From Sandaracinaceae bacterium (GTDB lineage Bacteria; Myxococcota_A; Polyangia; Polyangiales; JAFGIB01): a stretch of DNA of 64,000 nt. Below, in pieces: positions 6,623 through 56,883 of the stretch (its first letter is position 1; every line of letters begins with the position of its first letter). The DNA lies in assembly GCA_017881055.1 (NCBI GenBank), contig JADGRF010000016.1, positions 1,873-65,872 of the forward strand, given 5' to 3'. The position numbers and the translations under genes were made by a program. A model generated the notes under the pieces. That model searched no databases. It was given only the letters and a program-made list of their open reading frames with translations, and was not told where the DNA came from.

Positions 6623-8661
6623 AGACGTCCTTCGATCGCGCGCAGTCTGCGCTTCTCGCGATACCGGCGAATGCACGGCGCCATGATCTCGCCGATCAAT
6701 GTACGGTACGAGATCCCGACCGCGTCCGCGATTAGGCACATGTCGGAAAAGCCAGGCGACAGGCCGGGCAGCGGATTGCACTCGATGAAGTTCACCCGTC
6801 CCTGCGCATCGATACGCAAATCGACGCGCGCGTAGTCGCGGCAGCCGAGCGCCACGAACGAGCGCTTCGCCACGCGCTCGATCTCGCGCAAGAGCGGATC
6901 GTCGACCTTGGCTGGCACTTCATAACGGATGCCGCGGCCCCGGAACTTGCACTCGAAGTCGTAGATCGGGTGCTTGCGATCGGGGTCGGTGAAGATCACT
7001 TCCATCGGCGGCAGCGCCTTGGGCTTGGTCTCGCCGATCAGCGCGACCGTGAACTCACGACCGGGCAGGTACGTTTCGACCAGCACGTCCTGACGATACT
7101 TCTGGATCAGCTCGCGCGCGAAGTCGCGCAGCTCGGCTTCGGACTCGGCGACCGAGCGCCCGACGATGCCCTTGCTGCTGCCCTCGGCAACGGGCTTCAC
7201 CATCAGCGGGAAGTCGAGGCCCTTCGCCAAGCGCTCCTTGCCTGTGCGCATGACCATCGACGCCGGTGTAGGACACTCGGCCTGCGCGACGATCTGCTTC
7301 GCCAAGCTCTTGTCGAGCGCGAGCGACATGGCGGCCGGGTCCGAGCCTGTATAAGGAATGCCGAGCAGCTCGAGCAGCGCCGGAACCTGCGCTTCACGGT
7401 TGCGACCGCCCATGCCCTCCGCGATGTTGAACACCACGTCGGCCGCGGCGGCCGGCAACAACGTCGACAGCTCGGGTGTCGCTTCGAGCTCTACGACCGT
7501 GTGACCGTAGCTCTCGACCGCTTCGCGGATCGCCGAGATCGTCTGCGGCGTGTCGTACTCGGCGTCGTGATCACGATCTGGCGTGAGCTCCGCGGTGCGC
7601 CGAACGTTGTATGTCAGCCCAACGCGCAATCTCTGCGCACTGCGGCGTGCAGGCATTGCGCTCTGGGACAGCCCATAGCGCTCCGAGGCCGACCTCAAGA
7701 TCGCATCAAGCATGGCTTCTTGCGTCGGCAGGCCCGCGAGCGCGCTCGATGCGTAGATCGCCGCGCCCTTCTCCAAGCTCGGCAGCGCGTTCACTTCGAG
7801 GAAGTAGACCTCACCGTCGTCGCCGAGTCGGAAGTCCACGCGACCCATGTCGCGGATGCCGAGCGCGCGGATCACCTTCTGGGTGAGCTCGATGCAGCGC
7901 GCGCGCTGGGTGGTAGAAAGTCCGGCAGGCACCTTCACGTTCACCGCCTGCGAGCCGATGTTCTTGAGCTCGAAATCGTAGAGTTGGTAGCGCCGTCCGG
8001 CGACCGCAGCCGAGTCGTATTCGTAGCCCGCGGGCTCGAGCACACCCAAGGTCAGCGGCGACGCCTTCTCGATGAACGGCACCGTGAGATCGCGCCCCAC
8101 GATGAACTCTTCGATCAGCACACCGGCGGGGAAGCGCGCGATCAGATCGAGCACGCGCGCAGTCAGTTGCTCGTGCGTCTCCACGACCGAGTCCACCGTG
8201 ATGCCGACTGACGAGCCTTCGAAATTTGGCTTTACGATCAAGGGGAAGCGCAGATGGTTGGCCGCCGTCAGCTGCGTGACGTCTTCGACGTAGCAAAACT
8301 TCGGCGTGGTCACGTTGTGCGACGCGACGACCATCTTGCTCAGGCGCTTGTCGAGCGTGAGCGCGCAGACGTACGCGTCCGATCCGGTGAACGGCAAAGA
8401 CAGCCGATCGAACAGCGCCGGGTAGAACGCTTCGCGGAACCGACCGTGGCTACCCTCGGCGGTGTTGAACACCAGATCGGGTGCCAGCGCCTCGAGCCGA
8501 GCCACCACGCGCGACGCCGGACCCGACACCTCGATCGGCTCGACCTGATGGCCGAGCTTACGCAACGCTGCCGAGATCCCGGCGACGGTCTCTGGCGTGT
8601 CGAACTCGGCCTCTTCCTCGGCGGTGCTGAGCTGAAGGTTGTGGGTGAAAGCAATGCGCAT
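6619..8661 (-). CDS. Fused tandem ATP-grasp ligase (two D-Ala-D-Ala-ligase-like modules)
   Basis: 680 aa in two homologous halves, starting MRIAFTHNLQL... and LRVGLTYNVRR.... Each half has an N-terminal Ddl-like domain, KP(N/V)xEGSSxGI, (I/V)EE/ETY..GRE and a C-terminal R(V/Y)D(F/L)R...EVN/ECNxLPGL. Confidence 0.85.
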   Translation of the reverse strand: MRIAFTHNLQLSTAEEEAEFDTPETVAGISAALRKLGHQVEPIEVSGPASRVVARLEALAPDLVFNTAEGSHGRFREAFYPALFDRLSLPFTGSDAYVCALTLDKRLSKMVVASHNVTTPKFCYVEDVTQLTAANHLRFPLIVKPNFEGSSVGITVDSVVETHEQLTARVLDLIARFPAGVLIEEFIVGRDLTVPFIEKASPLTLGVLEPAGYEYDSAAVAGRRYQLYDFELKNIGSQAVNVKVPAGLSTTQRARCIELTQKVIRALGIRDMGRVDFRLGDDGEVYFLEVNALPSLEKGAAIYASSALAGLPTQEAMLDAILRSASERYGLSQSAMPARRSAQRLRVGLTYNVRRTAELTPDRDHDAEYDTPQTISAIREAVESYGHTVVELEATPELSTLLPAAAADVVFNIAEGMGGRNREAQVPALLELLGIPYTGSDPAAMSLALDKSLAKQIVAQAECPTPASMVMRTGKERLAKGLDFPLMVKPVAEGSSKGIVGRSVAESEAELRDFARELIQKYRQDVLVETYLPGREFTVALIGETKPKALPPMEVIFTDPDRKHPIYDFECKFRGRGIRYEVPAKVDDPLLREIERVAKRSFVALGCRDYARVDLRIDAQGRVNFIECNPLPGLSPGFSDMCLIADAVGISYRTLIGEIMAPCIRRYREKRRLRAIEGRL

Positions 8662-8866
8662 ACGACGGACTCCTGGAAAGCACGCGCGCGTTGTGCAAGG
8701 TGCAGGCCAAGCTCAGCGCTCCGTCGCCACACGCGTCACACAACACCTCGTGATCAACTTTTTGGCCTCGATCATGCAAGGGGGGCAAGCTGTTAACGAG
8801 ACGTGTCGTCGTTCGGGCGCTGTTCAGCGCAATCATTACGGCGCGCGACCAACAGAGGAACAGCGC

Positions 8867-10372
8867 ATGGACGTCGAGCTTGGTCACCCGATGCCTTTCA
8901 TCGAGGAAGAAGAAACGGAGCCTCCTTCAGTAAGCGCTCCGCGAGTCACGGACACTGGACACGCCACTGCCACTGACACCTTCACGAACCCGATCGCGAA
9001 CCTCTTTGACGGGCATCGTCAACTCCTCGAAGGCGACTTCTGGCGCTACATCCCCGCGTACCGCGGCGTCGATCAAGCGACCTTCCTCGATCATCACTGG
9101 CAGAGCCAACACGCCGTGACGCGCGTGGACAAGCTCGCCACCGCGCTCGGCGATCTGCTGCCCAACGCGTTCTTCCGCGACGTGGAAGCCGGCATGGCGC
9201 GCGCACCGATGAGCCTGCGCATCTCGCCGTACATCGTGTCGCTCATCGACTGGCGCGACCCGTACAGCGACCCGCTTCGCAAACAGTTCCTGCCGCTCGC
9301 CTCCGAGCAGCTGGCCGACCACCCGATGGTGGGGTTCGACTCGCTGCACGAGCGCAGCGACTCGCCCGTGCCGGGCCTGGTGCATCGCTATCCCGACAAG
9401 GCGCTGTTCCTCGCGCTCGATCTCTGTCCGGTGTACTGCCGATTCTGCACCCGCAGCTATTCGGTCGGCGTCGACACCGAAGGCGTGTCCAAGTACCACC
9501 TGCGCGCGAAGCCCGAGCGCTGGGAAGTCGCGTTCGAGTACATCCGCGAACACGAGCAGCTCGAAGACATCGTGATCAGCGGTGGCGACGTGCACAATTT
9601 GCGCGCGGACCAGATCGCGGACATCGGCAACACGCTGCTCGACATCCCGCACGTGCGCCGCATGCGCTTCGCGACCAAGGCGATCGCCGTCGCACCCATG
9701 AAGTTCTTGAGTGACGACGAGTGGGTCAACTCGCTCGCGAGCGTCGCGCAACGCGGCCGCAAGCTCGGCAAGGAAGTCGTCGTACACACCCACGTGTCGC
9801 ACCCGCGCGAGATCACGTGGATCACCCAGGCCGCGACGCGCCGCTTGTACGGCGAAGGCGTCACGATCCGCAACCAGTGCGTGCTGCTGCGCGGCGTCAA
9901 CGACGACCCGACCATCTTGCGCACGCTGGTCAAGCGCCTCTCGTACGTGAACGTTCAGCCGTACTACGTGTACCAGCACGATCTCGTGCCCGGCGTCGAA
10001 GACCTGCGTACCAGCCTTGGCACCACGCTCGCGATCGAGAAGCAGGTGCGCGGCTCGACGGCAGGCTTCAACACGCCGACGTTCGTGGTCGACGCCCCAG
10101 GCGGCGGCGGCAAGCGCGACGTGCATTCGTTCGAGCACTACAACCGCACCACCGGAGTGAGCGTGTATCGCTCACCGAACGTGGACGAGAGCGCCGTGTA
10201 CCTGTACTTCGACCCGATCGAGTTCCTGCCCGAGGAGGGCCGGCGCCGCTGGGCCGATCCCGACGAGCACGCCACGATGATCAGCGAAGCCGTACGCGCA
10301 GCAGGTCACGATCCCGCCAGTCTGCCCCGCGGATGGGGAGCCTCCCAACGGCGCCGCCTCCCCGTTATGTGA
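8867..10372 (+). CDS. kamA: KamA-family radical-SAM aminomutase (L-lysine 2,3-aminomutase-like)
   Basis: ORF 8639..10372 trimmed to ATG 8867 (AGAGGAA 6 nt upstream). Contains LCPVYCRFCTRSY (CxxxCxxC), ISGGD, YYVYQHDL and PTFVVDAPGGGGKR. Confidence 0.85.
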   Translation: MDVELGHPMPFIEEEETEPPSVSAPRVTDTGHATATDTFTNPIANLFDGHRQLLEGDFWRYIPAYRGVDQATFLDHHWQSQHAVTRVDKLATALGDLLPNAFFRDVEAGMARAPMSLRISPYIVSLIDWRDPYSDPLRKQFLPLASEQLADHPMVGFDSLHERSDSPVPGLVHRYPDKALFLALDLCPVYCRFCTRSYSVGVDTEGVSKYHLRAKPERWEVAFEYIREHEQLEDIVISGGDVHNLRADQIADIGNTLLDIPHVRRMRFATKAIAVAPMKFLSDDEWVNSLASVAQRGRKLGKEVVVHTHVSHPREITWITQAATRRLYGEGVTIRNQCVLLRGVNDDPTILRTLVKRLSYVNVQPYYVYQHDLVPGVEDLRTSLGTTLAIEKQVRGSTAGFNTPTFVVDAPGGGGKRDVHSFEHYNRTTGVSVYRSPNVDESAVYLYFDPIEFLPEEGRRRWADPDEHATMISEAVRAAGHDPASLPRGWGASQRRRLPVM

Positions 10373-10417
10373 TCGCGGATCGCGTGGCCCTTCACGAGAC
10401 GCGTTGTCACTGCGGCC

Positions 10418-10563
10418 AAAACAGTGGCGCATGGGTCGTGAGCCGCGAGCGAGGCGCCTTCGGTTCCGAGGAGCGCGCGGAGCGGACTTCCCGTCCGTGA
10501 GCACGCACCGCAGGAAGCGAAGGCGGATCGCGAAGTGGATCGCGGCCCAGGCGCCACTGTTTT
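10418..10563. repeat. Palindromic intergenic element, copy A (MITE/REP-like family)
   Basis: Terminal inverted repeats AAAACAGTGGCGC ... GCGCCACTGTTTT. Internal blocks are shared with copy C (56676..56855). The right arm overlaps the TAA stop of the 10562..12079 gene by 2 nt. Confidence 0.7.
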
Positions 10564-12079
10564 AGGGGGAGGTGCGTTCGCAGGTGAGTAGGGAGAGGTA
10601 GTTCTTCCAGGGGTCGCCGCCTTTGGACTTTAGGGCGGCGGCTAGTTCTTGGGTTTCGTAGGCTCGCTTTAGGCGCAGGGTGATCGCTTCTTCGGTTTGG
10701 CCGGCGGCGTAGCGGGCGTCGAGGTCGTCTACTTCTTCGGCAGCTGCGGCGTTGGCCTTGGCCTCGTCGCTGTCGTCCAGGACCTTCTTGATGGCGAGTG
10801 AGTCGCGCGCGAGCGTGGGCGCGAAGTCGGGGTGGTAGGCGTCGTCGAGCACGGGCCAGCGGCCGAGCAGCAAGGCCGACAACGCGCCGTGCTTTTCGTC
10901 GAGGTTGTCCTCGGCGATCGTGAGCTCGTGATCCAGCTGATCGAGCGTGCGCCCGAGCGCGGATAATCGCTCTTCGACGGCCGCTCGCGTGAGTAGCCCA
11001 AGGCGCGCGCCGAGCTGCGTCACGACGGCGGCGTCCTCGGGCAGCAATTTGGCGTCGATCTTGCCGGGTTTCTTCTGCACTTCGCGCAGGTAGCGCTCCG
11101 ACGTGGTGGTCGGCACGTCGATCGATTCGCCCGCGATGCGCGCACGCGTGTGCGCCTCGAACAGGCTCACCCGCCCGTCGCCATCGAAGTCGATGTCGCG
11201 CTTCGCAAGCGGATGGCCATCGCGATCTTCGCCACGCAGCGCGTGCAGCATGTGCATGCTGTAGCCCTCCTGCGCGCGCCGATCAGGGTTCGGATCGCAG
11301 CCGCTGGTCTCGCGGTCCCACGTTCCGGCAAACAGGCCACAGCGTGGCGAGGTCGTGATGCCGCGCGCCGGCTCCGCAGCTTCGAACGCGAGCTCGGCAA
11401 AGCCACCGGAGAAACAACTCGCGATCACCAAGCGCACCGGCCGCTTTGCCTTGCTCGACAGCGCATCGAGCTCGGGCACGGAGAGCTCGTCGCCGCCCCA
11501 GAGCACCACGTGGTTCTCGCGTGCGTGTCCGCCCTGCTCGCCATGAGATGCAATGTAAAGAAGCAGCGGGTCCTTGCCCTCGGCAAGCGCATGGAACAGC
11601 TCGTGGTGGACACTGCTCGAGCTCGCGGGCAGCGCGTTGAGCGAGGGCTTGCGATACCGACTGCCGCGGCCTTTGCGTGGCGTGAAGAAGTCACCGACGC
11701 GCACGAGCACGCTGGTCGCATCCAAGGTCGGGTCGAGCGTGCGCACGCTGTTGGCGTCCGAGCCACCGGCAAACAGCACCCTGCCCGGCCCCGGCAACAC
11801 GCTGACGACCAGCGCAATGTCCTGCTCGAGCGACACTTCCGTCGACTCGGGCGTGGCACCTCCGCCGATTGCGATGAAGCGCAGCGGTCCGCTTGCAGCT
11901 GCCGGCGGCATAGCAGGCGCGGCCACGGTCGGCGCAGCCGTGGCCGACGCGCTCGGCGCGGCTCGTTTCGCCCGCGCTGCTACGGGCGCGACCTCACGCC
12001 GGCGCGGCGCGCCTGCGCACAGCGCGATGAACAGCGCAAACGAAGCGCAGGCGATGGTAGTCCGCAGCATGTCGAGCAC
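10562..12079 (-). CDS. Secreted clan-CD cysteine peptidase-like protein (legumain C13/caspase fold) with EF-hand-like loop and coiled-coil tail
   Basis: Signal peptide MLDMLRTTIACASFALFIALCAGA. His-Gly / Ala-Cys dyad context LLLYIASHGEQGG ... VRLVIASCFSGGF. DIDFDGDGRVSLFEAH is a Ca-binding-type loop. Confidence 0.65.
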   Translation of the reverse strand: MLDMLRTTIACASFALFIALCAGAPRRREVAPVAARAKRAAPSASATAAPTVAAPAMPPAAASGPLRFIAIGGGATPESTEVSLEQDIALVVSVLPGPGRVLFAGGSDANSVRTLDPTLDATSVLVRVGDFFTPRKGRGSRYRKPSLNALPASSSSVHHELFHALAEGKDPLLLYIASHGEQGGHARENHVVLWGGDELSVPELDALSSKAKRPVRLVIASCFSGGFAELAFEAAEPARGITTSPRCGLFAGTWDRETSGCDPNPDRRAQEGYSMHMLHALRGEDRDGHPLAKRDIDFDGDGRVSLFEAHTRARIAGESIDVPTTTSERYLREVQKKPGKIDAKLLPEDAAVVTQLGARLGLLTRAAVEERLSALGRTLDQLDHELTIAEDNLDEKHGALSALLLGRWPVLDDAYHPDFAPTLARDSLAIKKVLDDSDEAKANAAAAEEVDDLDARYAAGQTEEAITLRLKRAYETQELAAALKSKGGDPWKNYLSLLTCERTSP

Positions 12080-12106
12080 CGGTCGCGCAGCATAGCGCGT
12101 GGACCG

Positions 12107-13654
12107 TCACGGCGCTGCGTCAGAACAGCAACGGAAGCCCAAGCTCGGCAACAGCGTGTTCGCGCTCGCCTGCGAGAACGTGGTCTGGCACGTGAGCGCC
12201 CCCGCCGACGAGATGTACGAGCCGCCGCGGGCCACGTAGATCGGAATGTTGGCCGGGGCGCCGGTCGTTCCGTCGGCGTCGCTGGTCCACTCGCGCACGT
12301 TGCCGGAGAGATCGTAGGCGCTCTCCTGGCTGATGCACGCAGCCAGCGATCCCGTCGGCAGCACGGCGCTGTCGAACGCACCCCCGGGAACGGCATCGTG
12401 GTCGGCACCGTTGCAGCTGTCACCGACGTAGCTCGCGCCGTAGGGATACGTGGTCGCGCTCGCGCCTTCACACGCGCCCTGCCATTCGGCGCCGGTGCAC
12501 AGGCGCCGGCCCGATGCCGCGCAAGCCGCGCTCGCCACGGAGTACGACACGAACGTCCAAGGCAACGCGTTGGCCTTCGAGCAGGAGCGCGCGGTCACTC
12601 GCCCTGGCACCGTCGCCAGCGCATCCGGGCGCGAGGCCTCGTAGCGGTACATCCAGTAGTCGAGCCCGCCGCGGACGACGTGCACCATGTCGTCAATCAC
12701 TCGCTTCGGGTCCTGCGGGTCCGGGTTGTCCACGGTGCCGTCGCAGTTGTCGTCGACGCCGTTGCAGGTCTCGACCGCGGCGGGCCCCGAGCCGGGCACG
12801 GGATCGGGCAGCACCGTTAGGTCGCAATAGGTACGCGTGGGATCGACCGGATGGCAGCGGATCATGCCGACGTCGCGGCACGCGCCGAGCGAACCGTCGT
12901 CGCACTCTTTGCCGACCTCGGGCCACGGCTCGTCGACCAAGCCGTCGCAGTCGTTGTCGATACCGTCGCAGCGCGTCTCGTCGGGCACGATCCCGTTCGG
13001 CACGATCGGATCGAACTGCACGCCGGCCGGATAGTCGCAGTACCAGGTGGTGCGTCCGGCCCGCGTATCGCAAACCACGCCGACGTTCTCGCAGGGCGTC
13101 CCGGCGAGATGACGGCAGATGCCGTTGCCCGGCCGGATCAGGTCTTCATCGGTTTGACCGTCGCAGTCGTCGTCGACGCCGTTGCAGTCTTCGCTGCGCG
13201 CAGGAAACACCGGACAGCGGTACTCACAGCCAGCCTTGTGGTCCAGGTCGGCAAAGCCGAGCTGACAGCCCAGGTCCTGGCACTTGCCGCGCACGCACAC
13301 CGCGTCGACGTTCTCGACCGCGCAGGAATGGTTGCAGCTGCCACAGTGCTGCGGGTTGTTCTCGAGCGCGAAATCCTCATCGACCTTGCCATCGCAGTCG
13401 TCGTCGATCTGGTTGCAGATCTCGTCTTGGCCGCTCGAGATGCAGGTGTCGATGCGGCCACTGTCGGGCGTGGGCGTGGCCATGTTGCCCGCGTCGGGGG
13501 ACACAGCGCCGTCGATCACAGCGCCGTCGATCACGCCGCCGGCATCCTCGACACAGTCGAGGCAAAATGCTTCGTTGCGGCAACCGGCTGCGCCGAGGCA
13601 CACCAGCGCACACAGCGACGCGCACACGAGCGCGCGCAGAGCAGCGTCCCTCAC
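12107..13654 (-). CDS. Lipoprotein with 4 MopE-type metal-binding repeats and a C-terminal FGE-sulfatase (SUMF1-like) domain
   Basis: ORF 12107..14248 trimmed to GTG 13654 (GTGA overlap with the upstream stop at 13651-13654). Lipobox in VRDAALRALVCASLCALVCLGAAGC. Repeats CNQIDDDCDGKVDEDF, CNGVDDDCDGQTDEDL, CDGIDNDCDGLVDEPW and CNGVDDNCDGTVDNPD. FGE core includes YWMYRYEASR, LSGNVREWT, RGGSY and LGFRCC. Confidence 0.8.
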   Translation of the reverse strand: MRDAALRALVCASLCALVCLGAAGCRNEAFCLDCVEDAGGVIDGAVIDGAVSPDAGNMATPTPDSGRIDTCISSGQDEICNQIDDDCDGKVDEDFALENNPQHCGSCNHSCAVENVDAVCVRGKCQDLGCQLGFADLDHKAGCEYRCPVFPARSEDCNGVDDDCDGQTDEDLIRPGNGICRHLAGTPCENVGVVCDTRAGRTTWYCDYPAGVQFDPIVPNGIVPDETRCDGIDNDCDGLVDEPWPEVGKECDDGSLGACRDVGMIRCHPVDPTRTYCDLTVLPDPVPGSGPAAVETCNGVDDNCDGTVDNPDPQDPKRVIDDMVHVVRGGLDYWMYRYEASRPDALATVPGRVTARSCSKANALPWTFVSYSVASAACAASGRRLCTGAEWQGACEGASATTYPYGASYVGDSCNGADHDAVPGGAFDSAVLPTGSLAACISQESAYDLSGNVREWTSDADGTTGAPANIPIYVARGGSYISSAGALTCQTTFSQASANTLLPSLGFRCCSDAAP

Positions 13655-16600
13655 GTTCGCCTCCGCGAGCGGCGCACGAACACCCGCGCAAACAACAACG
13701 TCATACCGAAAGGCGCGAGCGAGCGCGGCGCAGGGCGCCCCGGCGCGCTCACGCTGCAGCTCGACAGCCCCGAGCCGCTGGTCGCTACGTACGTTGCAAC
13801 GTGCGGCTTTTCGTTGGGGTTCTTGGGTGGCGCGCAGACCGGCTCCCCATGACCACCGACCGTGCACAGCTCGCTGACCGGACAATGCGTGACTGCGCAC
13901 GGGTCCGCGACGCAGCCGACAGCGGGTAGACACACGTCGCCCGTCACGCATGAAAGACTCGCGCAGGGATCCGCAACGCACTTGCCGCCCCGACACACGT
14001 CCCCCTGGTGCGCCGGACAGGTCACGCTGGCGCACGGGTCCACCTCGCAGCCGCCGCTCGAGCCGCAGCTCTGGCCGCTCGGGCACTTCGCGTCGTCGCA
14101 GTGCGAGAGACACTTGCCGTCCCAGCACAGATCGTTGGTGGCGCACTTCACGCGCGCGCACGGATCCGGTTCGCAGGCGTGGTCGTAGCAGACCTGGCCC
14201 GTCGCACAGCCCGACACCGCGCAGTCCACGCACTGGCCGTTCACGCACGTCGACCCCGAATCACATTTCACGCCCTGACACGCGTCCACACAGTGGTCGA
14301 CCGCGCAGCGTTCGCTCGTCTTGCAGATCGAGCACGCGCTGGGCAAGCAGAAGCCACCGCTGAAGCCAGCCTTCATCACGCAGCTCATACCGACCGGGCA
14401 TGGGAACTCTTGCTTGGGGTCGCAGCCGCGGCGACACGCACCTGACACGCACGCGTTACCCTTCGGACAGACCGCGTCGTCGTCCACCTGCCCGTTGCAA
14501 TTGTCGTCGCGACCGTTGCACAGCTCATCGGTCTTCGAGACGCCCCCGATGCACATGAGCGAGCCCGACACGCAGCGCAGCACGCCGGGCGTGCACTCGC
14601 CCCGCGTCGAGCCGCAAGCGCGGTTCAACGACGGATCCGCTTCGTCGATCTTGCCGTCGCAGTCGTCGTCCTTGCCGTTGCACAGCTCTTCGCCGCTCTG
14701 CACGCAGCTCGTGTCCGTGCAGTCGAGGCTCTCGTCGATGGCGCCGTCGCAGTCGTCGTCCAAGTTGTTGCAGATCTCGACGCCGGGGCTCTGCGGAGGC
14801 GTGCTGATGTTGCACTGCAGCGAGTCACCGGCCGTGTTGCACGCGAGCGCGCCGAGACCTCGGCAAATGCCTCGGCCACCGTCGTTGCAGCTCTGCCCGA
14901 GGCCCGTGAAGTCTTCGTCGATCTTGGAGTCGCAGTCGTCGTCGAGCCCGTTGCAGGTCTCGAAGCGCACGGAGCGCGAGACGATGCTGGTCAGGGCCGG
15001 CATCAACTCCTGTGGCTGCGACACGAACGCGGCGCCGCGCGTGCCGCCGGAGCCCGCCATCGCGATGCCGTTCAGCGCTTGCTGCTCGCTTGGCAGCACG
15101 CTGACCGCGATCACGTTCACGTCGATGCCGAGCACGTCGTGCAGGTGCCGGGCCTGGGACACGGGATCGCCCGCGCAGCTCTCCGCACCGTCCGTCACCA
15201 GGATCACGCTGTAGTCACGACAGCCGGCAACCGGGTCGGTCGCGCGCACCGGGCGGATGTAGTCTTCGACGGCTTGCAACGAGCCTGCGAGCGGCGTCGG
15301 CCCCGCACCGCGCACTTCGCAGTCGCCACCCGTGCGATGGGCGCAGAAGTCGCCTGGCGTGGTGTCGCCGTTCCACGCGGTCTCCTTGCCATCGAGCCAC
15401 TTCACCATCGCTTTGAGTGGTGTGCCGAAGCCAGACAGAATGTCCGCGCCGCGGCGCGCAGGGCCACACGAGCCCGCGTAGTTGATGCACTCGGTGCGAA
15501 CCGGCGGGTTGGGCCCGGCGTTCGGATTGACGAGCACCGAAATCGTATCGCCCGGATTCGGCCCGTAGCTCACGTCGCAGGCGTGCGCGCCGGAGTTGTC
15601 GCGTGGGTCATCGTAGCTGGCGACCAGGCCCTGGCACTCGAACCACGCGGCGGCCTGGCACGAGCGGTTGGGGCCCTCGTCCTGGTGGTAACGCGCGAGC
15701 CCGAAGTCGAGCTCGGGATACGCCGTCATCACTTGCGCCAAGGTCTCGCGCGCGAGGAACAAGCGCGAGTCGTTGGGTTGACCGTCGCCATCGGTGTCGA
15801 TGCCCGGGTGCTCCACGCTTCCGTCACCGAAGGTCGGGTACCCGGTCAAAGTCAGCAGCATCGAAGCGGACGTATCGAGGATCACCATGACGCGCGGCTT
15901 GCCACCGTCAGCTGCAGCCTTGCAGCTTGGATCGCTGGTCACCGTCGGCGCGCACGCGGCTGGCTCGCCCGCGCTGCAGCTCGGGATGCTCTGCGCACAC
16001 ACGCCGAGCCCGCACTGAGAGTTGCTGAAGCCTTCGTCTATGACCCCATCGAAGTCGTTGTCGAAGCCGTCGCACACCTCGCCGATGTACGCACCGTCCA
16101 GCTGCAGCTCGCCCGCGCCGCCGCCCGCTTCGCCCTGGCAAAGCGGACACGTACCGCCGAGCGCACCGCTGACATCGAAGCGCGCGCTCGGATCGAAGCT
16201 CGCACGCACCGAGAGCACGCTGATCACGCCGCCACCGCCGCCGCCACCGCAGTCGTCGCAGCCGGCCACCGTGGTCTGCGCGCCCGCCGGGCAATCCAGG
16301 TAGTCGGGCTGACCGACCGCCGCCGCACGCGCGTCGCCGCCGAGACCGCCAGCCGCGGTGATCAGCGCGGTCGGGCCGAGCTCCACCTTCTCGCCGACCA
16401 CCAGCACCGAGCCGCCCGCACCGCCGCCGCCCGAGTCGTTGTCCACGCCGCAGCCACGCGCGCCGCGTGCGTCGACGGTTCCGTCGATATGCACGGTGCC
16501 GGGTGCGAGGCCGCACGGCGACGCGCTACTGCCGCGGGCGCTGAGGCCCACGAGCGCGACTCGTCCACCGCCGGCTCCACCCACGATCGGCGAGGTGAAG

Positions 16601-17226
16601 CCATCGCCGTCCATGCAACCCTTGTCACCACCGGCCGCACCGAACTCCGGCTGATAGACGTTGTGCTGTGCGCTCACGCCGGCCACCGACGGCCCGAGCC
16701 CGAGCGCACCCGCGCAGTACGCGTAGCTGCTGCAGCCCGTCCCAGTGAACGTGTTCATGCAGTCGTCTTCGAAGTCGGCCGGGAAGCTCATCGGACGATC
16801 GATCGTGCCGCGACCACCGGGGCCGAAGTGCGCGCCACCGCCCGCGGAGTCGCGCAAGCTGCAACCGCCGCGACCGCCCGCGCTCGACGTGGGCCCGTCG
16901 CCGTCGCCGCACAGCTCCGAGGTGTAACCTGCCGCGCGCGCCGTGACCTTGGACGTTGCGTCCACGAAGATCGAGCCCGCGACCAGCTCCAGGTTTCCGT
17001 AGACGTGCTTGTCCGAGCCGTGCACGTACTGAATCACGCGGATCACGCCGCCGTGGATCACGCACACGTTGTCGTAATGGCGCGCGGACGCAGCATCGAC
17101 CGTGAACGTGGCCGGGCCTTGGACACCGGTCCCGTCTACGATCAGATCATTGGCCTGCGCGCGCGCCACGCCCTGCGCTACGCAGCAGGCGCTCGCGATC
17201 GTCAGCCAGCAGAGCAGGCGGCGCAT
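13651..17226 (-). CDS. Giant secreted protein: Gly-rich N-region, vWA domain, MopE-type repeats, Cys-rich repeats, MYXO-CTERM-like tail
   Basis: Signal peptide MRRLLCWLTIASACCVAQGVARAQA. vWA MIDAS VMVILDTSASM. Five C..(D/N)DDC(D/N)G..DE repeats. Long CxxGxxC / DPC repeat region. C-terminal SSCSVSAPGRPAPRSLAPFGMTLLFARVFVRRSRRRT. Confidence 0.85.
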   Translation of the reverse strand: MRRLLCWLTIASACCVAQGVARAQANDLIVDGTGVQGPATFTVDAASARHYDNVCVIHGGVIRVIQYVHGSDKHVYGNLELVAGSIFVDATSKVTARAAGYTSELCGDGDGPTSSAGGRGGCSLRDSAGGGAHFGPGGRGTIDRPMSFPADFEDDCMNTFTGTGCSSYAYCAGALGLGPSVAGVSAQHNVYQPEFGAAGGDKGCMDGDGFTSPIVGGAGGGRVALVGLSARGSSASPCGLAPGTVHIDGTVDARGARGCGVDNDSGGGGAGGSVLVVGEKVELGPTALITAAGGLGGDARAAAVGQPDYLDCPAGAQTTVAGCDDCGGGGGGGVISVLSVRASFDPSARFDVSGALGGTCPLCQGEAGGGAGELQLDGAYIGEVCDGFDNDFDGVIDEGFSNSQCGLGVCAQSIPSCSAGEPAACAPTVTSDPSCKAAADGGKPRVMVILDTSASMLLTLTGYPTFGDGSVEHPGIDTDGDGQPNDSRLFLARETLAQVMTAYPELDFGLARYHQDEGPNRSCQAAAWFECQGLVASYDDPRDNSGAHACDVSYGPNPGDTISVLVNPNAGPNPPVRTECINYAGSCGPARRGADILSGFGTPLKAMVKWLDGKETAWNGDTTPGDFCAHRTGGDCEVRGAGPTPLAGSLQAVEDYIRPVRATDPVAGCRDYSVILVTDGAESCAGDPVSQARHLHDVLGIDVNVIAVSVLPSEQQALNGIAMAGSGGTRGAAFVSQPQELMPALTSIVSRSVRFETCNGLDDDCDSKIDEDFTGLGQSCNDGGRGICRGLGALACNTAGDSLQCNISTPPQSPGVEICNNLDDDCDGAIDESLDCTDTSCVQSGEELCNGKDDDCDGKIDEADPSLNRACGSTRGECTPGVLRCVSGSLMCIGGVSKTDELCNGRDDNCNGQVDDDAVCPKGNACVSGACRRGCDPKQEFPCPVGMSCVMKAGFSGGFCLPSACSICKTSERCAVDHCVDACQGVKCDSGSTCVNGQCVDCAVSGCATGQVCYDHACEPDPCARVKCATNDLCWDGKCLSHCDDAKCPSGQSCGSSGGCEVDPCASVTCPAHQGDVCRGGKCVADPCASLSCVTGDVCLPAVGCVADPCAVTHCPVSELCTVGGHGEPVCAPPKNPNEKPHVATYVATSGSGLSSCSVSAPGRPAPRSLAPFGMTLLFARVFVRRSRRRT

Positions 17227-17762: not shown

Positions 17763-19706
17763 TCACTGCGGAACGGGCAGGCCGCAGAAGCCGCCGATGC
17801 AGGCCAGGCCTTGGCCCGGGCAGCAGTCCGCCGTCTTGGTGCACTTCTCGTCGATCATCGAGCAAGCCGCCGTCGATTCGCCGCACTTGCCCATCACGCA
17901 GTGACCGCTGCAGCAGTCGATGCCCGACTCGCATGAGTCGCCATCCACGTGGCACGGCGAGAGCGCCGCGAACGCGCGGATGTTGCCTGACACGCCCTCT
18001 TGACCGGGCAAGAAGAACGCGGGGTGGCTCGGGTCAGCACCGGGTGCGGCGTGAATGTCGATCGCAGCAACCCAGATCTTCTTCGCCGAGTTGTCCTGCA
18101 CGTTCGTGTACGTGTACTTGTTGCCGTACTGACGACGGCTGCTGAAGAACATCCAGAAGTAGCCGCCAGCCGCAACCGGGCTGATGGTCGGGATGTAGTC
18201 GACGTGCGCATCGCGATCGCCGTACGGCATGAAGTTCGTGGTGCCTTCGAAGCCACCCGCGCGACTGAGTGGCGCGACCATGCCCGTGTCCAGGTCGATC
18301 CAAAACAGATCGCTCGGATGCGGGGTCACGCCGGCGGGCGCGTCCTGCGTCACGTAGTCACCGCTCTTACCGAGCGCGAACACGAGCCGACGACCGGCCT
18401 TCTGCGCGTTCTCGGAGCTCGTGTCCTGCACGTCCGGCAAGAACTGCGGCCAGCCGACGTACCTGCTCGGGTCGGTGTAGGCCGTCTTCAAGTTCGTGAA
18501 CTTGTTGCTCGCCTTGTCGAAGTCCATGGTCGCGAGCTCGTGACCGCCGGTGCCGGCATCCGCGAGGTGGTTGAACGCGATCACTCTTCCGTCGGTCGAG
18601 AACATCGGCATCATCACGTACTTCGGCGCGCCGCTGCCCGCGATCTCCATGCCGGTCTTCGAGTCGTAGAGCTTCGTGTTTTCGGGGCCGAACGTACCCG
18701 GCACGTTGCCGGTGCCACCGAACGGACCGAGCTGCGGACGACCCATGGTCAAGTACACGCTGCCGTCCGGATACAAGCCGCTGAAGCCCGCGCGCTTGAG
18801 GTTGCTGAACACCGGCGGCGGGAACGTCGCGGTGCCCGCAGCCTTCAGGTTGAACAAGAAGCTCGAGCCCTCCACGAGGCCGAGGGCCGCGTGCTCTTCC
18901 GCGACCATCGTGCTGCCGTCGGCGGAGACCGAGTGGCAACCGATGCAGAAGCCGGCGACCGTATCGTGGCCCTTCAGGAACACGTCGGGCTGTGGCTGCT
19001 TCGGGCTGATGCGCATGACCACGCCGCCGACAGCGCCCATCTGCATCGCGAGCGCCGAGCCGTAGGTATTGTAATAGATCGACGTCTTCAGCTCGGCGAG
19101 CGCGAACACGACCTTGCGGGTGGGCAGCTTGCTGGCCTTGCCGGCCGCGACTGCCACGAGATCGATCGAGAGTGGATCGGTGCCGCCCCGGCTCTGCACA
19201 CCGGCGGTGTCCCAGACATCCTGTGGCAGTTGCAGCTGACCGGCCTTGGTCGGGGGCAAGCAGCCCTTGTAGTCGAACAGGTTCGAGTGCATATGCACGT
19301 AGACGGCATCGGAGGCCGTGCCGCCGCCGACCTCGTCCCACTGCAGGAGCGGGGCTTCGAGGCCGCGCGGGAAGACCGTGTTCTCGTAGGGGTACAGCCA
19401 GCGCATCGGCGCGACCGTCATCACAGCGGGATTCTGCAGTGCGGTCACGTTGGTCGCCGAGACCATGCCGGGACACGCATTGAGGTTGATTGGCTGGTCT
19501 GAGCCCACGGGCGCACCACCAGTGCCGCCGTTCCGAGCGCCGCTGCCGCCAATTGGCCCACCACCGACGCCAGAGACGCCGCTGCCCGAGCCGCCACCGT
19601 TGGCTGCGCCGCCTTGTCCACCGTGCCGAACGGTATTGGCGGAACAAGCCGTCAGGGCGGCGAAGATCATCAAGCGCGCAGCGAGCGCTGGGGGCGAAAG
19701 CGTCAT
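17763..19706 (-). CDS. Secreted lipoprotein of unknown function with one CxxCH motif and a C-terminal Cys-knot module
   Basis: ORF 17763..19889 trimmed to ATG 19706 (AGGAGG 7 nt upstream). Lipobox MTLSPPALAARLMIFAALTACS, then a Gly-rich linker. CIGCH motif. C-terminus CHVDGDSCESGIDCCSGHCVMGKCG...CCPGQGLACIGGFCG. Confidence 0.75.
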   Translation of the reverse strand: MTLSPPALAARLMIFAALTACSANTVRHGGQGGAANGGGSGSGVSGVGGGPIGGSGARNGGTGGAPVGSDQPINLNACPGMVSATNVTALQNPAVMTVAPMRWLYPYENTVFPRGLEAPLLQWDEVGGGTASDAVYVHMHSNLFDYKGCLPPTKAGQLQLPQDVWDTAGVQSRGGTDPLSIDLVAVAAGKASKLPTRKVVFALAELKTSIYYNTYGSALAMQMGAVGGVVMRISPKQPQPDVFLKGHDTVAGFCIGCHSVSADGSTMVAEEHAALGLVEGSSFLFNLKAAGTATFPPPVFSNLKRAGFSGLYPDGSVYLTMGRPQLGPFGGTGNVPGTFGPENTKLYDSKTGMEIAGSGAPKYVMMPMFSTDGRVIAFNHLADAGTGGHELATMDFDKASNKFTNLKTAYTDPSRYVGWPQFLPDVQDTSSENAQKAGRRLVFALGKSGDYVTQDAPAGVTPHPSDLFWIDLDTGMVAPLSRAGGFEGTTNFMPYGDRDAHVDYIPTISPVAAGGYFWMFFSSRRQYGNKYTYTNVQDNSAKKIWVAAIDIHAAPGADPSHPAFFLPGQEGVSGNIRAFAALSPCHVDGDSCESGIDCCSGHCVMGKCGESTAACSMIDEKCTKTADCCPGQGLACIGGFCGLPVPQ

Positions 19707-19890
19707 CGTAATCCTCCTAGAGAAACTCAAGAGACTCGGGAAACTCGACAAGTCGCGAAGGCGCTTCGTAACCCCGTGCCCGTCCGGAACGCAAACGGAA
19801 CCTCGTACGTCGGTGTACGAACCTTGCACGTTTGATCGTATCTGGTTTGGGCCAGTTGTCACGGACCTTTCGGCAGAACGCGCGCTCACT

Positions 19891-19930: not shown

Positions 19931-20055
19931 CGTCGGTCAAGGAAGCTGGCAGCCGACGTGTGAGTCAGCATCTGCGCAACACCCGTACAATGGACTTGTG
20001 GAGTTGCTCGCTTCCCGGCAGAATCCCGAGTCAGGGACGCGTAAAAGGCAGCGGC

Positions 20056-22266
20056 GTGGTGCGAACCAAGTTTCAACTCGGCTTCGAATACTGGGCGGTC
20101 GTGGGTTGTGTGGTCTCGCTCGTCGCGTGCGGTTCGCCGCAAAAAAACGCGCAGCGCGGTGCCCATGACTCCGGCACGGATGTAGGGGACGGCTCGACCG
20201 CCGTTGGCGGAAAGAAGGACAGTGGGACCGACTCCGGGTCGCCCCTGCTGACCTGTGCAGCCGCCGCCTGCGACAAGCACGCGACCTGCTCCGACGTGGC
20301 GAACGATGCCACCTGCAGCTGCAACGCTGGCTACCGCGGCAGTGGCACGAGTTGCAGCGACGTCGACGAGTGCAAGCAAGCAAAGCTGAACGACTGCGCG
20401 GCGAACGCAAGCTGCACCAATACCGCAGGCGGCTACACGTGCGAGTGCAAGGCCGGCTTCCAGGGCGACGGCCGGGCCTGCAGCGACGTCGATGAGTGCA
20501 GCACGGGCGTGAAAACCTGTGACATCAACGCGACCTGCAAGAACACGGTCGGTGGTGCGCTCTGCAAGTGCGCAGCGGGTTACGTGGCCAGTGGCGCAAC
20601 CTGCATCGACGTGAACGAGTGCACTGCCGCCAGCCCGAAGACGTGCGGCGCAGACGCCAGCTGCGTGAACACACCCGGCTCCGCGTTCTGCAAGTGTGAC
20701 GACGGCTATCACGGCGACGGCCAGACGTGCGCGAAGAACATCGCCTGCCCGAACGGCAACGGATGCGGCACACACGCAACGTGCAGCACGAGCGCAATCT
20801 GCGTATGCGCCAACGGCTACGAGACCAGCGACGGCGTCAACTGCACCAACATCGATGAGTGCGCGACTGACATGGATACCTGTGCTTCGGCCGCCACCTG
20901 CACGGACACCGACGGCTCGTACACCTGCGGCTGCATGCCCGGGTTCACGGGCGACGGCATGACCTGCACCGACATCGACGAGTGCAAAGCCAAGACGGAC
21001 AACTGCGGCGCGCTCGCCACCTGCATGAACACGGCCGGCTCGTTCACCTGCACGTGCCCCGACGGCTACTCCGGCGGCACCGGCAGCGACTGCAAGAACA
21101 TCAACGAGTGCGCGACCCCGAGCGCCAACAACTGCACCATCAACGCCGACTGCACCGACAAGACACCCGGCTTCAGCTGCAAGTGCAAGCCCGGCTTCAC
21201 CGGCGATGGCGTCGCGCACTGCGACGACATCGACGAGTGCGCCAACAGCACGCTCAACACGTGCGCCGCCACCGAGACCTGCACGAACACCGCGGGCAGC
21301 TACCTGTGCGGCTGCAACTCGCCGTACGTAAAGAAGGGCAGCGCCTGCTACTGCGATCTGAGCGGCATGTGGGGCATGCGGCAGGATGTGACGACCCGTT
21401 GGCCGCACGTCACCGGTATTGGTGGCGTCGAAGTGATCAAGGCCGGCACGCTGCACACGACCGTGTGGGAGCTCCATCGCATGAGCTACGACGGCACCAC
21501 CGTGAAGGTCGACAAGAAGGGCTGCGGTCCCTCGCTGACGGCTGACTTGCTCGGCTCCGGAGCGCTCAGCGGCCAGACCTACGGCGCCTACATTCCCAAG
21601 AGCGTGTGGGATGCCTTTGCGCTGATTCACGGCGGGGATGTTCCGCTGTCCAATGCCAAGCCCGGAACCGCGTTCGTGTCGCCCAAGGAAGCGGCTGTAC
21701 TCGGCATCAAACTGGCGAACCCGTTGACGGACGCCTGGCCGACGCCGGCCGCGGCTGTGAAGGACGATGCGGACGGCGACGGGATCCCTGGGCTGATGGT
21801 TTGGACCCATACGCCGTCGGAACAGACGCAGCTCAGCATGCCCGCCAGCAAGAAGTACTACAGCTATCCGTACATCAGCTTGAACCGTGCGGTATGCGTC
21901 TCGACGGCCACGCGCGCGATAGGTCATCTCGACGGCATGGTCGTGGACTGCAGCAACATCAGTGGAACGGTCAAGCGCGACATCGTGCCGGGGCAAAAGG
22001 TCGGCGACAGCCCAATCGCGCAACAACATACCTACGATTGCCGCATCCCGGTCGACAGTGCGAAGTCGTATGGCTGCACGGCTGCGGAGTGGAACGATAA
22101 ATCGAAGATGACGCCTTGCTCCTCGGGCGACATCACCGGTCTGGATGCGCAAGTGGACCAAACGACCAGCACCGCGACCTTCGAGCTGGTCAAACTGTCG
22201 GGTGATCCGAACGACACCAGCATCACCTGCCAGACCGTCCGCACCATGCTGCCGGCCTATCCGTGA
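20056..22266 (+). CDS. Lipoprotein with about 9 EGF-like modules (7 with calcium-binding cbEGF consensus) plus a C-terminal domain of unknown function
   Basis: ORF 19960..22266, start set at GTG 20056 (uncertain). Lipobox VGCVVSLVACGS. Repeated D(V/I)(D/N)EC...C.NT.G(S/G)(Y/F).C.C..G(Y/F).G(D)G..C. Track ORF 19717..22404 (-) is an antisense shadow. Confidence 0.85.
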   Translation: MVRTKFQLGFEYWAVVGCVVSLVACGSPQKNAQRGAHDSGTDVGDGSTAVGGKKDSGTDSGSPLLTCAAAACDKHATCSDVANDATCSCNAGYRGSGTSCSDVDECKQAKLNDCAANASCTNTAGGYTCECKAGFQGDGRACSDVDECSTGVKTCDINATCKNTVGGALCKCAAGYVASGATCIDVNECTAASPKTCGADASCVNTPGSAFCKCDDGYHGDGQTCAKNIACPNGNGCGTHATCSTSAICVCANGYETSDGVNCTNIDECATDMDTCASAATCTDTDGSYTCGCMPGFTGDGMTCTDIDECKAKTDNCGALATCMNTAGSFTCTCPDGYSGGTGSDCKNINECATPSANNCTINADCTDKTPGFSCKCKPGFTGDGVAHCDDIDECANSTLNTCAATETCTNTAGSYLCGCNSPYVKKGSACYCDLSGMWGMRQDVTTRWPHVTGIGGVEVIKAGTLHTTVWELHRMSYDGTTVKVDKKGCGPSLTADLLGSGALSGQTYGAYIPKSVWDAFALIHGGDVPLSNAKPGTAFVSPKEAAVLGIKLANPLTDAWPTPAAAVKDDADGDGIPGLMVWTHTPSEQTQLSMPASKKYYSYPYISLNRAVCVSTATRAIGHLDGMVVDCSNISGTVKRDIVPGQKVGDSPIAQQHTYDCRIPVDSAKSYGCTAAEWNDKSKMTPCSSGDITGLDAQVDQTTSTATFELVKLSGDPNDTSITCQTVRTMLPAYP

Positions 22267-43553: not shown

Positions 43554-43581
43554 GCTTGCAACGAACCAACGAACCGGCGAG

Positions 43582-56589: not shown

Positions 56590-56675
56590 CCGCGCGACCG
56601 CCGCCCCAGAACGACGCTCCGGGCCTGGCGTAAAACCTGGAATCGACTAGTAGTGACAGAGTCGACGGCCGGAAA

Positions 56676-56855
56676 CTAAACAGGAACGCATGGGCTGTGA
56701 GATACGAGCGAGGCGCCTTGTCTTCGGGCCGTGCAAGCACGACCCGCAAACCGCGTTTCGAGGAGCGCGCGCAGGCTACTCCTGTAGCTGAGCACGCACC
56801 GGAGAAAGCGAAGGCGGATCGCGACGTGGATCGCAGCCCAGGCGTTCCTGTTTAG
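56676..56855. repeat. Palindromic intergenic element, copy C
   Basis: Terminal inverted repeats CTAAACAGGAACGC ... GCGTTCCTGTTTAG. Shares with copy A the blocks GCATGGG, GTGAG, CGAGCGAGGCGCCTT, CGAGGAGCGCGC, GAGCACGCACCG, AAGCGAAGGCGGATCGCGA, GTGGATCGC and GCCCAGGCG, in the same order. Confidence 0.75.
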
Positions 56856-56883
56856 CTGGACCGTCGCGCTTGCTCGAGTAATC

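Follow-up and report, generated by a model that had tools for sequence, protein, structure and literature searches.

We analysed a 64,000-nucleotide stretch of DNA from a Sandaracinaceae bacterium (NCBI GenBank assembly GCA_017881055.1, contig JADGRF010000016.1, positions 1,873 to 65,872), hereafter called the window, concentrating on a string of three adjacent genes on its minus strand that we name g1, g2 and g3. A preliminary description of this DNA had presented them as one secreted three-gene system that combines a vWA protein, a lipoprotein with the fold of the formylglycine-generating enzyme (FGE) and a caspase-like peptidase. The open reading frame (ORF) calls placed the genes as follows:

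13651-17226, minus strand: g1, 1191 amino acids (aa), the range including the stop codon
12107-13654, minus strand: g2, 515 aa, with a GTG start
10562-12079, minus strand: g3, 505 aa

All three frames are long and rich in G and C at third codon positions (GC3). The GTG start of g2 shares nucleotides with the TGA stop of g1 in a GTGA at 13654-13651 (a 4-nt overlap), and a spacer of 27 nt (12080-12106) separates g2 from g3, so that the extent (10562-17226), strand, overlap and gap given previously all agree with the ORF calls. Public gene calls on the contig are identical for g1 and g2, and begin g3 later, at Met57, to give a protein of 449 aa. The longer start (505 aa) is probably better backed and the annotated one too short, since codons 1-56 have a GC3 of 0.79, the same as the remainder of g3, and since an N-terminal hydrophobic segment is found in 184 of 203 full-length homologues; the Met57 call drops window positions 11912-12079 and removes this segment, which 91% of the full-length homologues possess. 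The features of g1, g2 and g3 described below are far above chance, and each gene has hundreds of homologues. A cluster look-up of the window proteins in public records returned no names and no accessions. Promoter- and terminator-like sites across the gene string did not exceed the counts in shuffled sequence, in a scan that does not cover myxobacterial promoter types.

The product of g1 is composed of the following parts:

17155-17226, minus strand: putative signal peptide, aa 1-24 (MRRLLCWLTIASACCVAQGVARAQ), read from the sequence, with helix 2-17 in the model
16087-17154, minus strand: Gly-rich N-terminal domain, aa 25-380, from conservation and model
16033-16080, minus strand: fifth MopE copy, degenerate, aa 385-398, found by regular expression
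14971-15900, minus strand: vWA domain, aa 443-752, with large Cys-containing insertions, from Foldseek of the AlphaFold (AF2) model
14479-14967, minus strand: MopE/TSP3-like repeats, aa 754-916, four canonical copies, from PF11617, DNA repeat family D1 and regular expression
13822-14475, minus strand: Cys-rich stalk, aa 918-1135, some nine units of 21 aa, each containing four Cys, from alignment and model
13654-13788, minus strand: MYXO-CTERM-type tail, aa 1147-1191, SGSGLSSC ... LAPFGMTLLFARVFV RRSRRRT, from its three-part layout

More than 375 homologues of g1 were found across Myxococcota, with source labels such as 'VWA domain-containing', 'MopE-related' and 'MYXO-CTERM domain-containing'. 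One of them, P0229 from a Myxococcales metagenome-assembled genome (MAG), bears the NCBI name 'Tryptophan synthase alpha chain', an evident misannotation of a vWA/MopE surface protein. Foldseek comparison of the AF2 model of g1 (predicted local distance difference test, pLDDT, 68.7) gave 44 PDB matches at E<=1e-3, and the 50 matches listed are nearly all of the vWA fold, with template modelling scores (target) of 0.6-0.76 for single-domain vWA targets. At the top stand BatB (3ibs, E 1.2e-5), TFIIH p44, factor B, LapA vWFA and TEM8. The residues of the MIDAS (the adhesion site dependent on metal ions), D451, S453, S455, T644 and D679, are all invariant in 27 homologues; the DTSAS motif occupies aa 451-455 (nt 15862-15876). 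Based on the model, g1 is predicted to carry a vWA fold with a complete MIDAS. The Pfam VWA model (PF00092) gives 15.3 bits on this segment, below its gathering score of 23.8, because the large Cys-containing insertions split the domain, and it matches 11 of the 27 homologues at E<=0.01 (best 2.7e-7). There is also a faint CglB match in the vWA segment (E 0.0025, 16.9 bits, cut-off 200), and a full-length NCBIfam scan of g1 gave no family at E<=0.01.

The sole Pfam family detected in g1 is MopE (PF11617, 54.5 bits, cut-off 27). Its five CxxDDDCDGxxDE-type repeats lie at aa 385 (degenerate), 758, 819, 849 and 903, and both the DNA repeat family and the regular expression count five repeats in g1 and four in g2. 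The stalk appears in the homologue alignment as a ladder of invariant Cys and is modelled as paired, stacked beta-hairpins. As for the Gly-rich N-domain, many G, C, D, H and R residues are invariant over 27 homologues and the model contains short beta-strands, which probably form a beta-solenoid; no match was found in Pfam, NCBIfam or the PDB sequences, a profile search against PDB included. The Gly-rich and Cys-rich regions, which are directly visible in the sequence and conserved in homologues, the DTSAS MIDAS and the five MopE repeats, the first of them degenerate, had all been named in the preliminary description and hold.

MYXO-CTERM is defined by three C-terminal parts, namely a signature with an invariant Cys, a transmembrane helix and an Arg-rich cluster (PMC11980579). 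The g1 tail has a Cys signature, a hydrophobic helix (1171-1190 in the model) and an RRSRRR cluster, with G1151 and C1157 conserved. Using the MYXO-CTERM models TIGR03901 and TIGR03382, the homologous tail segment elsewhere scores 19.8-21.6 bits; P0196 passes (21.6 vs 20; 17.5 vs 15.85), P0198 passes at 15.9 vs 15.85, and four further homologues are borderline. Judging from these sequences, the g1 family bears a MYXO-CTERM tag, of which the window copy appears to be a degenerate form.

Three features were assigned to g2:

13580-13654, minus strand: lipoprotein signal peptide, aa 1-25, lipobox LGAAG-C25, from sequence
12710-13441, minus strand: four MopE repeats, at aa 80, 157, 229 and 297, PF11617, 65.9 bits (cut-off 27)
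12110-12667, minus strand: FGE-fold domain, aa 330-515, from PF03781

The position of the lipobox is conserved among homologues, and the FGE-sulfatase model PF03781 scores 66.4 bits (cut-off 23.3) over aa 358-510; the lipoprotein nature, the four repeats and the FGE fold claimed for g2 were all recovered. The closest solved relative of the FGE domain is the inactive paralogue pFGE/SUMF2 (E 3e-9). The catalytic copper-binding Cys pair of FGE (human C336/C341) is missing in g2 and in all 23 fused homologues examined: the alignment has RGGSYISSAGALTC where FGE has its CxxxxC site, and against 2aft SSAGAL stands opposite S/C-HRSY-C, the lone g2 Cys pairing with a structural Cys. Across homologues, the C-terminal FGE region is well conserved and not hypervariable. 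Given that the catalytic Cys pair is absent, the domain is probably a binding or structural module and not a formylglycine-generating enzyme. An earlier suggestion that the FGE fold acts as a ligand sensor fits such a module, but the setting is that of an adhesin and not of a conflict system.

The relationship between g1 and g2 was studied from the g1 side, in 41 metagenome loci found with g1 plus the loci L001, L004 and L005. The FGE domain of g2 follows g1 in all 23 metagenome loci that reach far enough, and the order g1 to g2 is kept in 26/26 informative loci (these 23 with L001, L004 and L005). In seven of these 26 loci the two genes form one continuous ORF, as in L001 (3123-8204), and among the 120 g1 homologues listed, 23 are proteins of 1630-1760 aa in which g1 is fused to PF03781. 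Clustering of all flanking ORFs in the 41 + 3 loci gave no conserved partner besides g2. The pair g1-g2 is an obligatory one, a module conserved across Myxococcota.

The fused homologues also indicate how the two proteins may be joined. The order at the fusion junction, that is Cys signature, hydrophobic helix, Arg cluster, second hydrophobic stretch and lipobox Cys, is kept in 20 of 25 long proteins, and in P0196 an internal MYXO-CTERM match above the model cut-offs lies at residues 1122-1154 of 1643. In the fused proteins the tag sits about 490 residues before the C-terminus, and a lipoprotein signal peptide with its lipobox Cys comes immediately after it. The split form of the window, with its GTGA overlap, and the fused form would then encode the same two anchored ectodomains, the fusion apparently deleting merely the stop codon within a cytoplasmic Arg-rich linker. 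This equivalence lends support to a fixed 1:1 production of two separately anchored partners. Tentatively, and with somewhat less than even confidence, we propose that the fused precursor, provided that it is processed in line with its signals, is a membrane hairpin which myxosortase and signal peptidase II cut into two differently lipid-anchored surface partners in a 1:1 ratio, the Arg cluster serving as both the cytoplasmic stop of the tag and the positive n-region of the signal peptide. If this is true, MYXO-CTERM would be able to act as an internal signal, and the GTGA overlap of the window would represent this arrangement in split form. A term search confined to the myxosortase discovery paper found no mention of such internal working. 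The fused relatives offer a natural sorting experiment, in which a mid-protein MYXO-CTERM tag, working or failing, lies beside a lipoprotein signal.

Regarding g3, the following features were found:

12005-12079, minus strand: N-terminal hydrophobic segment (signal peptide or membrane anchor), from homologue comparison
11075-11896, minus strand: caspase-like (clan CD) domain, aa 62-335, from Foldseek of the AF2 model
11543-11545, minus strand: His179, in the motif SHG (His179-Gly180)
11414-11416, minus strand: Cys222, in the motif IASCFSGG
11156-11191, minus strand: EF-hand-like loop DFDGDG, aa 297-302, from sequence
10577-11041, minus strand: C-terminal helical bundle, aa 347-501, ending in a conserved LLxCER motif, helices at pLDDT 94-98

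The family comprises at least 680 homologues from Polyangiales MAGs, all labelled 'hypothetical' and without a Pfam domain, and an exhaustive representative search put its size at 1275 clusters at 50% identity (E<=1e-3); among the best 150 of the listed matches of that search there was no bridge from g3 to annotated caspases. Pfam gave nothing on the window g3. The AlphaFold model, built with 36 homologues, has a pLDDT of 87.4, and the first 24 Foldseek matches all belong to clan CD or are caspase-like (probability 0.44-1.0, >=0.9 in all but three); among them are metacaspase 9, caspase-8, -3 and -1, clostripain, Raptor and a ligase resembling legumain. In the model, strand 172-178 leads to H179-G180 and strand 215-219 to C222. 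Over 242 sequences, conservation is 100% at His179, Gly180, Cys222, Cys247 and Cys261; C500 and E501 are conserved too. The NCBIfam model caspase_w_EACC1 matches g3 at E 1.3e-4 (21.5 bits, cut-off 140), and weak matches among 36 family members were to CHAT (five), C13 (four) and C14 (one), as well as to EF-hand. An hhalign comparison of the g3 profile with human caspase-3 was not significant (E 0.32) and pairs H179 with H121 and C222 with C163. The His-Cys spacing is 42 residues in caspase-3 and 43 in g3.

Based on the model, g3 would have a caspase-like (clan CD) fold, as the preliminary description had supposed, and represent an unannotated family. The dyad context proposed there is right as to the H-G and the Cys, and its 'A-C-x-S-G' is actually A-S-C-x-S-G. 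A lipobox is present in 52 (26%) of the full-length homologues, and the family is most likely envelope-anchored; an extracytoplasmic location of all three proteins, as claimed before, is plausible. Considering its architecture, g3 is most likely a Ca2+-influenced envelope cysteine endopeptidase, and conserved acidic residues round the predicted pocket may point to a basic P1 preference as in metacaspases. No Pfam or NCBIfam model covers this clan-CD-like family, which is large (more than 1,200 clusters at 50% identity) and has an invariant dyad.

Whether g3 belongs with g1-g2 was examined in 24 g3 loci (23 genome loci and one metagenome locus). Apart from the window, g1-g2 lies upstream of g3 in three of them, directly before it in L004 and L005, and in L001 as the fused gene followed by a phosphoglucose isomerase (PGI) gene. 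The closest relatives of g3 (67% identity), in L002 and L003, have the same downstream genes, similar to lysine-2,3-aminomutase (KAM) and D-Ala-D-Ala ligase (Ddl), and FtsH directly upstream, with g1-g2 absent. Overall, the upstream arrangements were TPP-EGF-FadL-g3 in four loci (TPP, thiamine pyrophosphate enzyme), FtsH-g3-KAM in two, FtsH-g1-g2-(PGI)-g3 in three and LMF1-g3-ADH in four (ADH, alcohol dehydrogenase); the other 11 loci had none of these. From the other side, 14 g1 metagenome loci extend 3 kb or more past g2; of these, 13 lack g3, and the exception has it at a distance of 8.5 kb. It occurs in 4/26 g1-g2 loci, and immediately after g2 only in L004 and L005. It appears from these sequences that g1-g2 was inserted between FtsH and g3 in one sub-lineage. 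Because its co-conservation with g1-g2 fails (3/24 g3 loci; 1/14 g1 loci), as opposed to the 26/26 of g1-g2 alone, g3 is judged a bystander: it is a separately conserved neighbour, its adjacency to g2 is sub-lineage-specific synteny and not a functional triad, and the three-gene unit of the preliminary description does not stand.

We favour, with a probability of roughly 60%, the explanation that the stretch holds two independent units, g1-g2 as a probable two-part, cation-dependent and integrin-like surface adhesin or receptor, and g3 as a separate one, from a family that is common in Polyangiales. The domains, folds, conserved residues and co-conservation pattern are observed; from them we infer where the proteins are located, their role in adhesion, the association of g1 with g2 and the peptidase function of g3. 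The g1 protein would be exported by Sec via its signal peptide, and its head, made of the Gly-rich solenoid-like domain and the MIDAS vWA, would be carried on the Ca2+-binding MopE repeats and the disulfide-rich stalk. The C-terminal MYXO-CTERM-type tag would hold it at the membrane, and by analogy with TraA the Cys of the tag may be lipidated, the transmembrane helix removed by myxosortase and the protein brought to the surface through type II secretion (the T2SS). Such a route, with lipidation, MrtX cleavage and the T2SS, has been described for MYXO-CTERM sorting (PMC11980579). Production of g2 in a fixed ratio to g1 would follow from the stop/start overlap here and from the shared reading frame in many relatives, and the lipoprotein would add a C-type-lectin-like FGE-fold domain on MopE repeats of its own, for which ligand binding is most likely, rather than catalysis. 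Together, g1 and g2 might act as an integrin-like, Ca2+/MIDAS-dependent adhesin or receptor, by analogy with CglB and CglD. The g3 protein would be a membrane- or lipid-anchored caspase-fold peptidase with a His-Cys dyad, possibly modulated by Ca2+ via its DxDxDG loop.

On this interpretation, g1-g2 represents a two-component family of surface proteins, widespread in Myxococcota and so far uncharacterised, whose integrin-like traits (MIDAS vWA, Ca2+ repeats, Cys stalk) bear on adhesion, motility, predation and kin contact, and a plausible-looking 'secreted caspase/vWA/FGE death system' is kept out of annotation.

A number of observations weigh against this interpretation. In three genomes (L004, L005 and the window) with an identity of only 58-65%, g2 and g3 are separated by no more than 24-100 nt, no terminator-like site beyond chance lies between g2 and g3, and a strong hairpin comes right after g3; co-transcription of g3 with g1-g2 is possible in this genome, and so is a functional link of local extent. 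Adhesion and partnering of g1 and g2 are argued from architecture, and the approximately 350-aa N-domain of g1, with its invariant polar residues and no family match, could be catalytic, which would alter the picture. The window g1 tail, which the preliminary description had called MYXO-CTERM-like, has the three-part layout but reaches only 8.1 bits in the hidden Markov model (HMM) search, at a cut-off of 20. Concerning g3, the topology of the window protein is ambiguous, with an atypical lipobox and a PRRR motif after the hydrophobic segment; its clan-CD assignment rests on Foldseek E values of about 1e-3 and sub-threshold HMM matches, and both single-sequence and profile searches against PDB sequences gave only spurious matches (PsbW, prefoldin).

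Among the alternatives, the one that survives best, although we regard it as unlikely, is that this sub-lineage recruited g3 as a protease that matures or sheds g1-g2 or, in a wider sense, surface proteins that are rich in Cys and bind Ca2+. It would resemble the clan-CD PorU and GPI8, which process C-terminal sorting signals, but a dedicated MYXO-CTERM protease, MrtX, exists (PMC11980579). The other neighbours of g3 are envelope proteins or Cys-rich Ca2+-binding secreted ones (an EGF_CA-repeat protein with a FadL-like outer-membrane protein; LMF1), the short g2-g3 gap recurs as mentioned, and the His-Cys dyad is invariant. No partner is consistent across the g3 family, however, and g1-g2 is widespread without g3 in the sampled flanks, including Sandaracinaceae and Kofleriaceae contigs.

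Less probable still is that g2 is an active enzyme of the FGE superfamily with g1 as its substrate, in which it might, for instance, oxidise or cross-link residues of the Cys-rich region or the MopE repeats. An enzyme-substrate couple would suit the obligatory pairing, the in-frame fusions and the strong conservation of the FGE domain, and the FGE folds of EgtB, SenA and PvdO type function without the FGE Cys pair, SenA giving weak matches here. However, g2 is without the DinB-like iron-binding domain that EgtB and SenA need, the copper-binding Cys pair is absent in g2 and in the 23 fused homologues, the nearest solved relative is the inactive pFGE, and the FGE-fold lipoproteins PorK and GldK are structural.

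Least probable, and in our opinion very doubtful, is the conflict or cell-death analogy of the preliminary description, in which the three genes form one extracytoplasmic system with FGE as ligand sensor, vWA as scaffold and the caspase-like peptidase as effector: the three domains are all present, the genes lie close together on a single strand without an intergenic terminator-like site beyond chance, the order g1-g2-g3 recurs in L004, L005 and, with PGI inserted, L001, and vWA-FGS fusions (FGS, FGE-sulfatase) co-occur with caspase effectors in published systems (PMC7159879), but g3 is not beside g1-g2 in 13 of the 14 metagenome loci with enough downstream sequence, g1-g2 is not beside g3 in 21 of the 24 g3 loci, and the published systems are NTPase-built and cytoplasmic. 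No MoxR, STAND or GTPase partner was found among the conserved neighbours (41 + 3 loci), the neighbours in the window being KAM-like, Ddl-like, EGF, FadL and TPP-enzyme genes. PADLOC gave no matches, the FGE domain is conserved and not hypervariable, and no template repeat of it like those of diversity-generating retroelements (DGRs) was found in the window. A ternary system built on FtsH was also considered; FtsH adjoins g1 in five loci, upstream and on the opposite strand, as an ordinary full-length protein of normal single-copy architecture without MoxR, and the candidate was rejected.

The 3' end of the gene string is marked by an element with a second copy in the window:

10415-10566, no strand assigned: imperfect long hairpin, copy A, starting at the g3 stop codon, between convergent genes
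56675-56856: hairpin copy B, upstream of a MatE transporter gene

This intergenic element measures about 150-185 nt, with a minimum free energy of -106 kcal/mol (z -9.3). Eight compensatory base-pair changes distinguish the two copies, and one of them has a 33-nt insertion that forms a small hairpin of its own. No Rfam match was obtained, and the element was not found in the related loci.

Several genes near g3 or its homologues are also worth describing. In Polyangiaceae, an 800-aa membrane protein of the LMF1 (lipase maturation factor-like) family precedes the g3 homologue (L066, 5600-9503; also L067, L070, L008, L009 and L012), with a gap of 1 nt in one case and a zinc alcohol dehydrogenase after g3; it may be a different operon partner of the caspase-like protein. 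The window at 19960-23945 encodes a protein with seven calcium-binding EGF domains and then a FadL/TodX-like outer-membrane protein, inverted relative to g3. The EGF-FadL pair was noted in L007, L020, L021, L023 and L068 as well, and in four other genomes it is directly upstream of g3 on the same strand (TPP-EGF-FadL-g3). On the other side, two divergent genes lie at 6619-10372, one for a 680-aa protein containing two ATP-grasp halves similar to D-Ala-D-Ala ligase and one for a protein similar to lysine-2,3-aminomutase. Both share 82-90% identity with their counterparts in L002, L003 and L005, compared to 58-67% for g3; they could constitute a small conserved amino-acid-modifying pathway.

Upstream of g1, beyond a non-coding gap of 536 nt, the minus strand carries a 708-aa ORF (17763-19889) whose long N-terminal extension is followed by an internal hydrophobic stretch; it also has a linker rich in Gly and a C-terminus rich in Cys. 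Neither Pfam nor PADLOC gave a match, and there is no counterpart in the 65 related loci searched. Finally, the minus strand at 39759-45255 carries two overlapping ORFs that have no connection with the g1-g2-g3 string. One encodes a protein of 1296 aa in which a Ser/Thr protein kinase is joined to a STAND-type AAA_16/NACHT-like NTPase, and no other STAND NTPase occurs in the window. The other, of 557 aa and without a Pfam match, is its upstream neighbour. This region had been a candidate for a paralogous pair of genes, which was rejected, as it consists of the kinase-STAND protein and an unrelated ORF.

Comparison with known systems places these proteins further. In multicellular bacteria, deltaproteobacteria among them, the MoxR-vWA ternary conflict systems bring vWA and FGS domains together, in some cases along with caspase-like peptidases (Kaur et al. 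2020; PMC7159879). The published vWA/FGS/caspase systems are cytoplasmic and NTP-dependent, with MoxR, STAND or GTPase NTPases, and their FGS is often DGR-diversified (PMC7159879). The MoxR ATPase, the third component (VMAP, iSTAND or double-FtsH), the effector-associated domains (EADs) and the DGR are all missing here, and the proteins are predicted to be secreted. As for g3, it shares with the clan CD peptidases (metacaspases and caspases of C14, legumain C13, clostripain C11 and CHAT) the predicted fold and a His-Gly and then a Cys after hydrophobic beta-strands, and with metacaspases an acidic Ca2+-type loop. Unlike the known members, it passes no family model and is predicted to be exported or membrane-anchored. 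Specific to it are a helical C-terminal domain of about 160 aa and an invariant RCG...SGCD segment, and the family is known solely from Polyangiales MAGs.

The g2 protein resembles pFGE/SUMF2 and PorK/GldK in having the FGE-sulfatase fold without the catalytic Cys pair, PorK and GldK being structural lipoproteins. It scores 23 bits with the GldK model (cut-off 350), and it differs from PorK and GldK by its MopE repeats, its vWA protein partner and the absence of type IX secretion system (T9SS) genes among the conserved neighbours. TraA, the outer-membrane exchange receptor, is similar to g1 in that a head is placed on a stalk of Cys-rich repeats with a MYXO-CTERM end, and in that the gene forms a two-gene operon with a partner. 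The heads differ, however, a solenoid and vWA in g1 against a PA14-like variable domain in TraA, as do the partners, the FGE-fold lipoprotein g2 against the OmpA-like TraB. Moreover, the tag of the window g1 is degenerate, and the fused g1-g2 homologues carry theirs internally.

There is also a likeness in kind to CglD and CglB, the gliding adhesins of Myxococcus xanthus, which are also large surface proteins with vWA and MIDAS. CglD has been described as a surface lipoprotein with a vWA/MIDAS domain, DxDxDG Ca2+ repeats and an EGF-like Cys stalk (bioRxiv 10.1101/2023.10.19.562135). The Asp-rich Ca2+ repeats (DxDxDG in CglD, DDDCDGxxDE in g1), the disulfide-rich EGF-like stalk and the lipid anchor are alike. 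Nevertheless, g1 is not an orthologue of either, given the low score with the CglB model (16.9 bits, cut-off 200) and the lack of any family in the NCBIfam scan. Besides, the domain order is different, g1 has the extra Gly-rich N-domain, and its anchor is of the C-terminal MYXO-CTERM type, whereas that of CglD and CglB is an N-terminal lipobox. Unlike CglD and CglB, g1 has an obligatory FGE-fold lipoprotein partner, and a link to Glt genes was not seen. The g1-g2 pair may be viewed as a variation on the known myxobacterial surface adhesins, with an unusual dual-signal junction.

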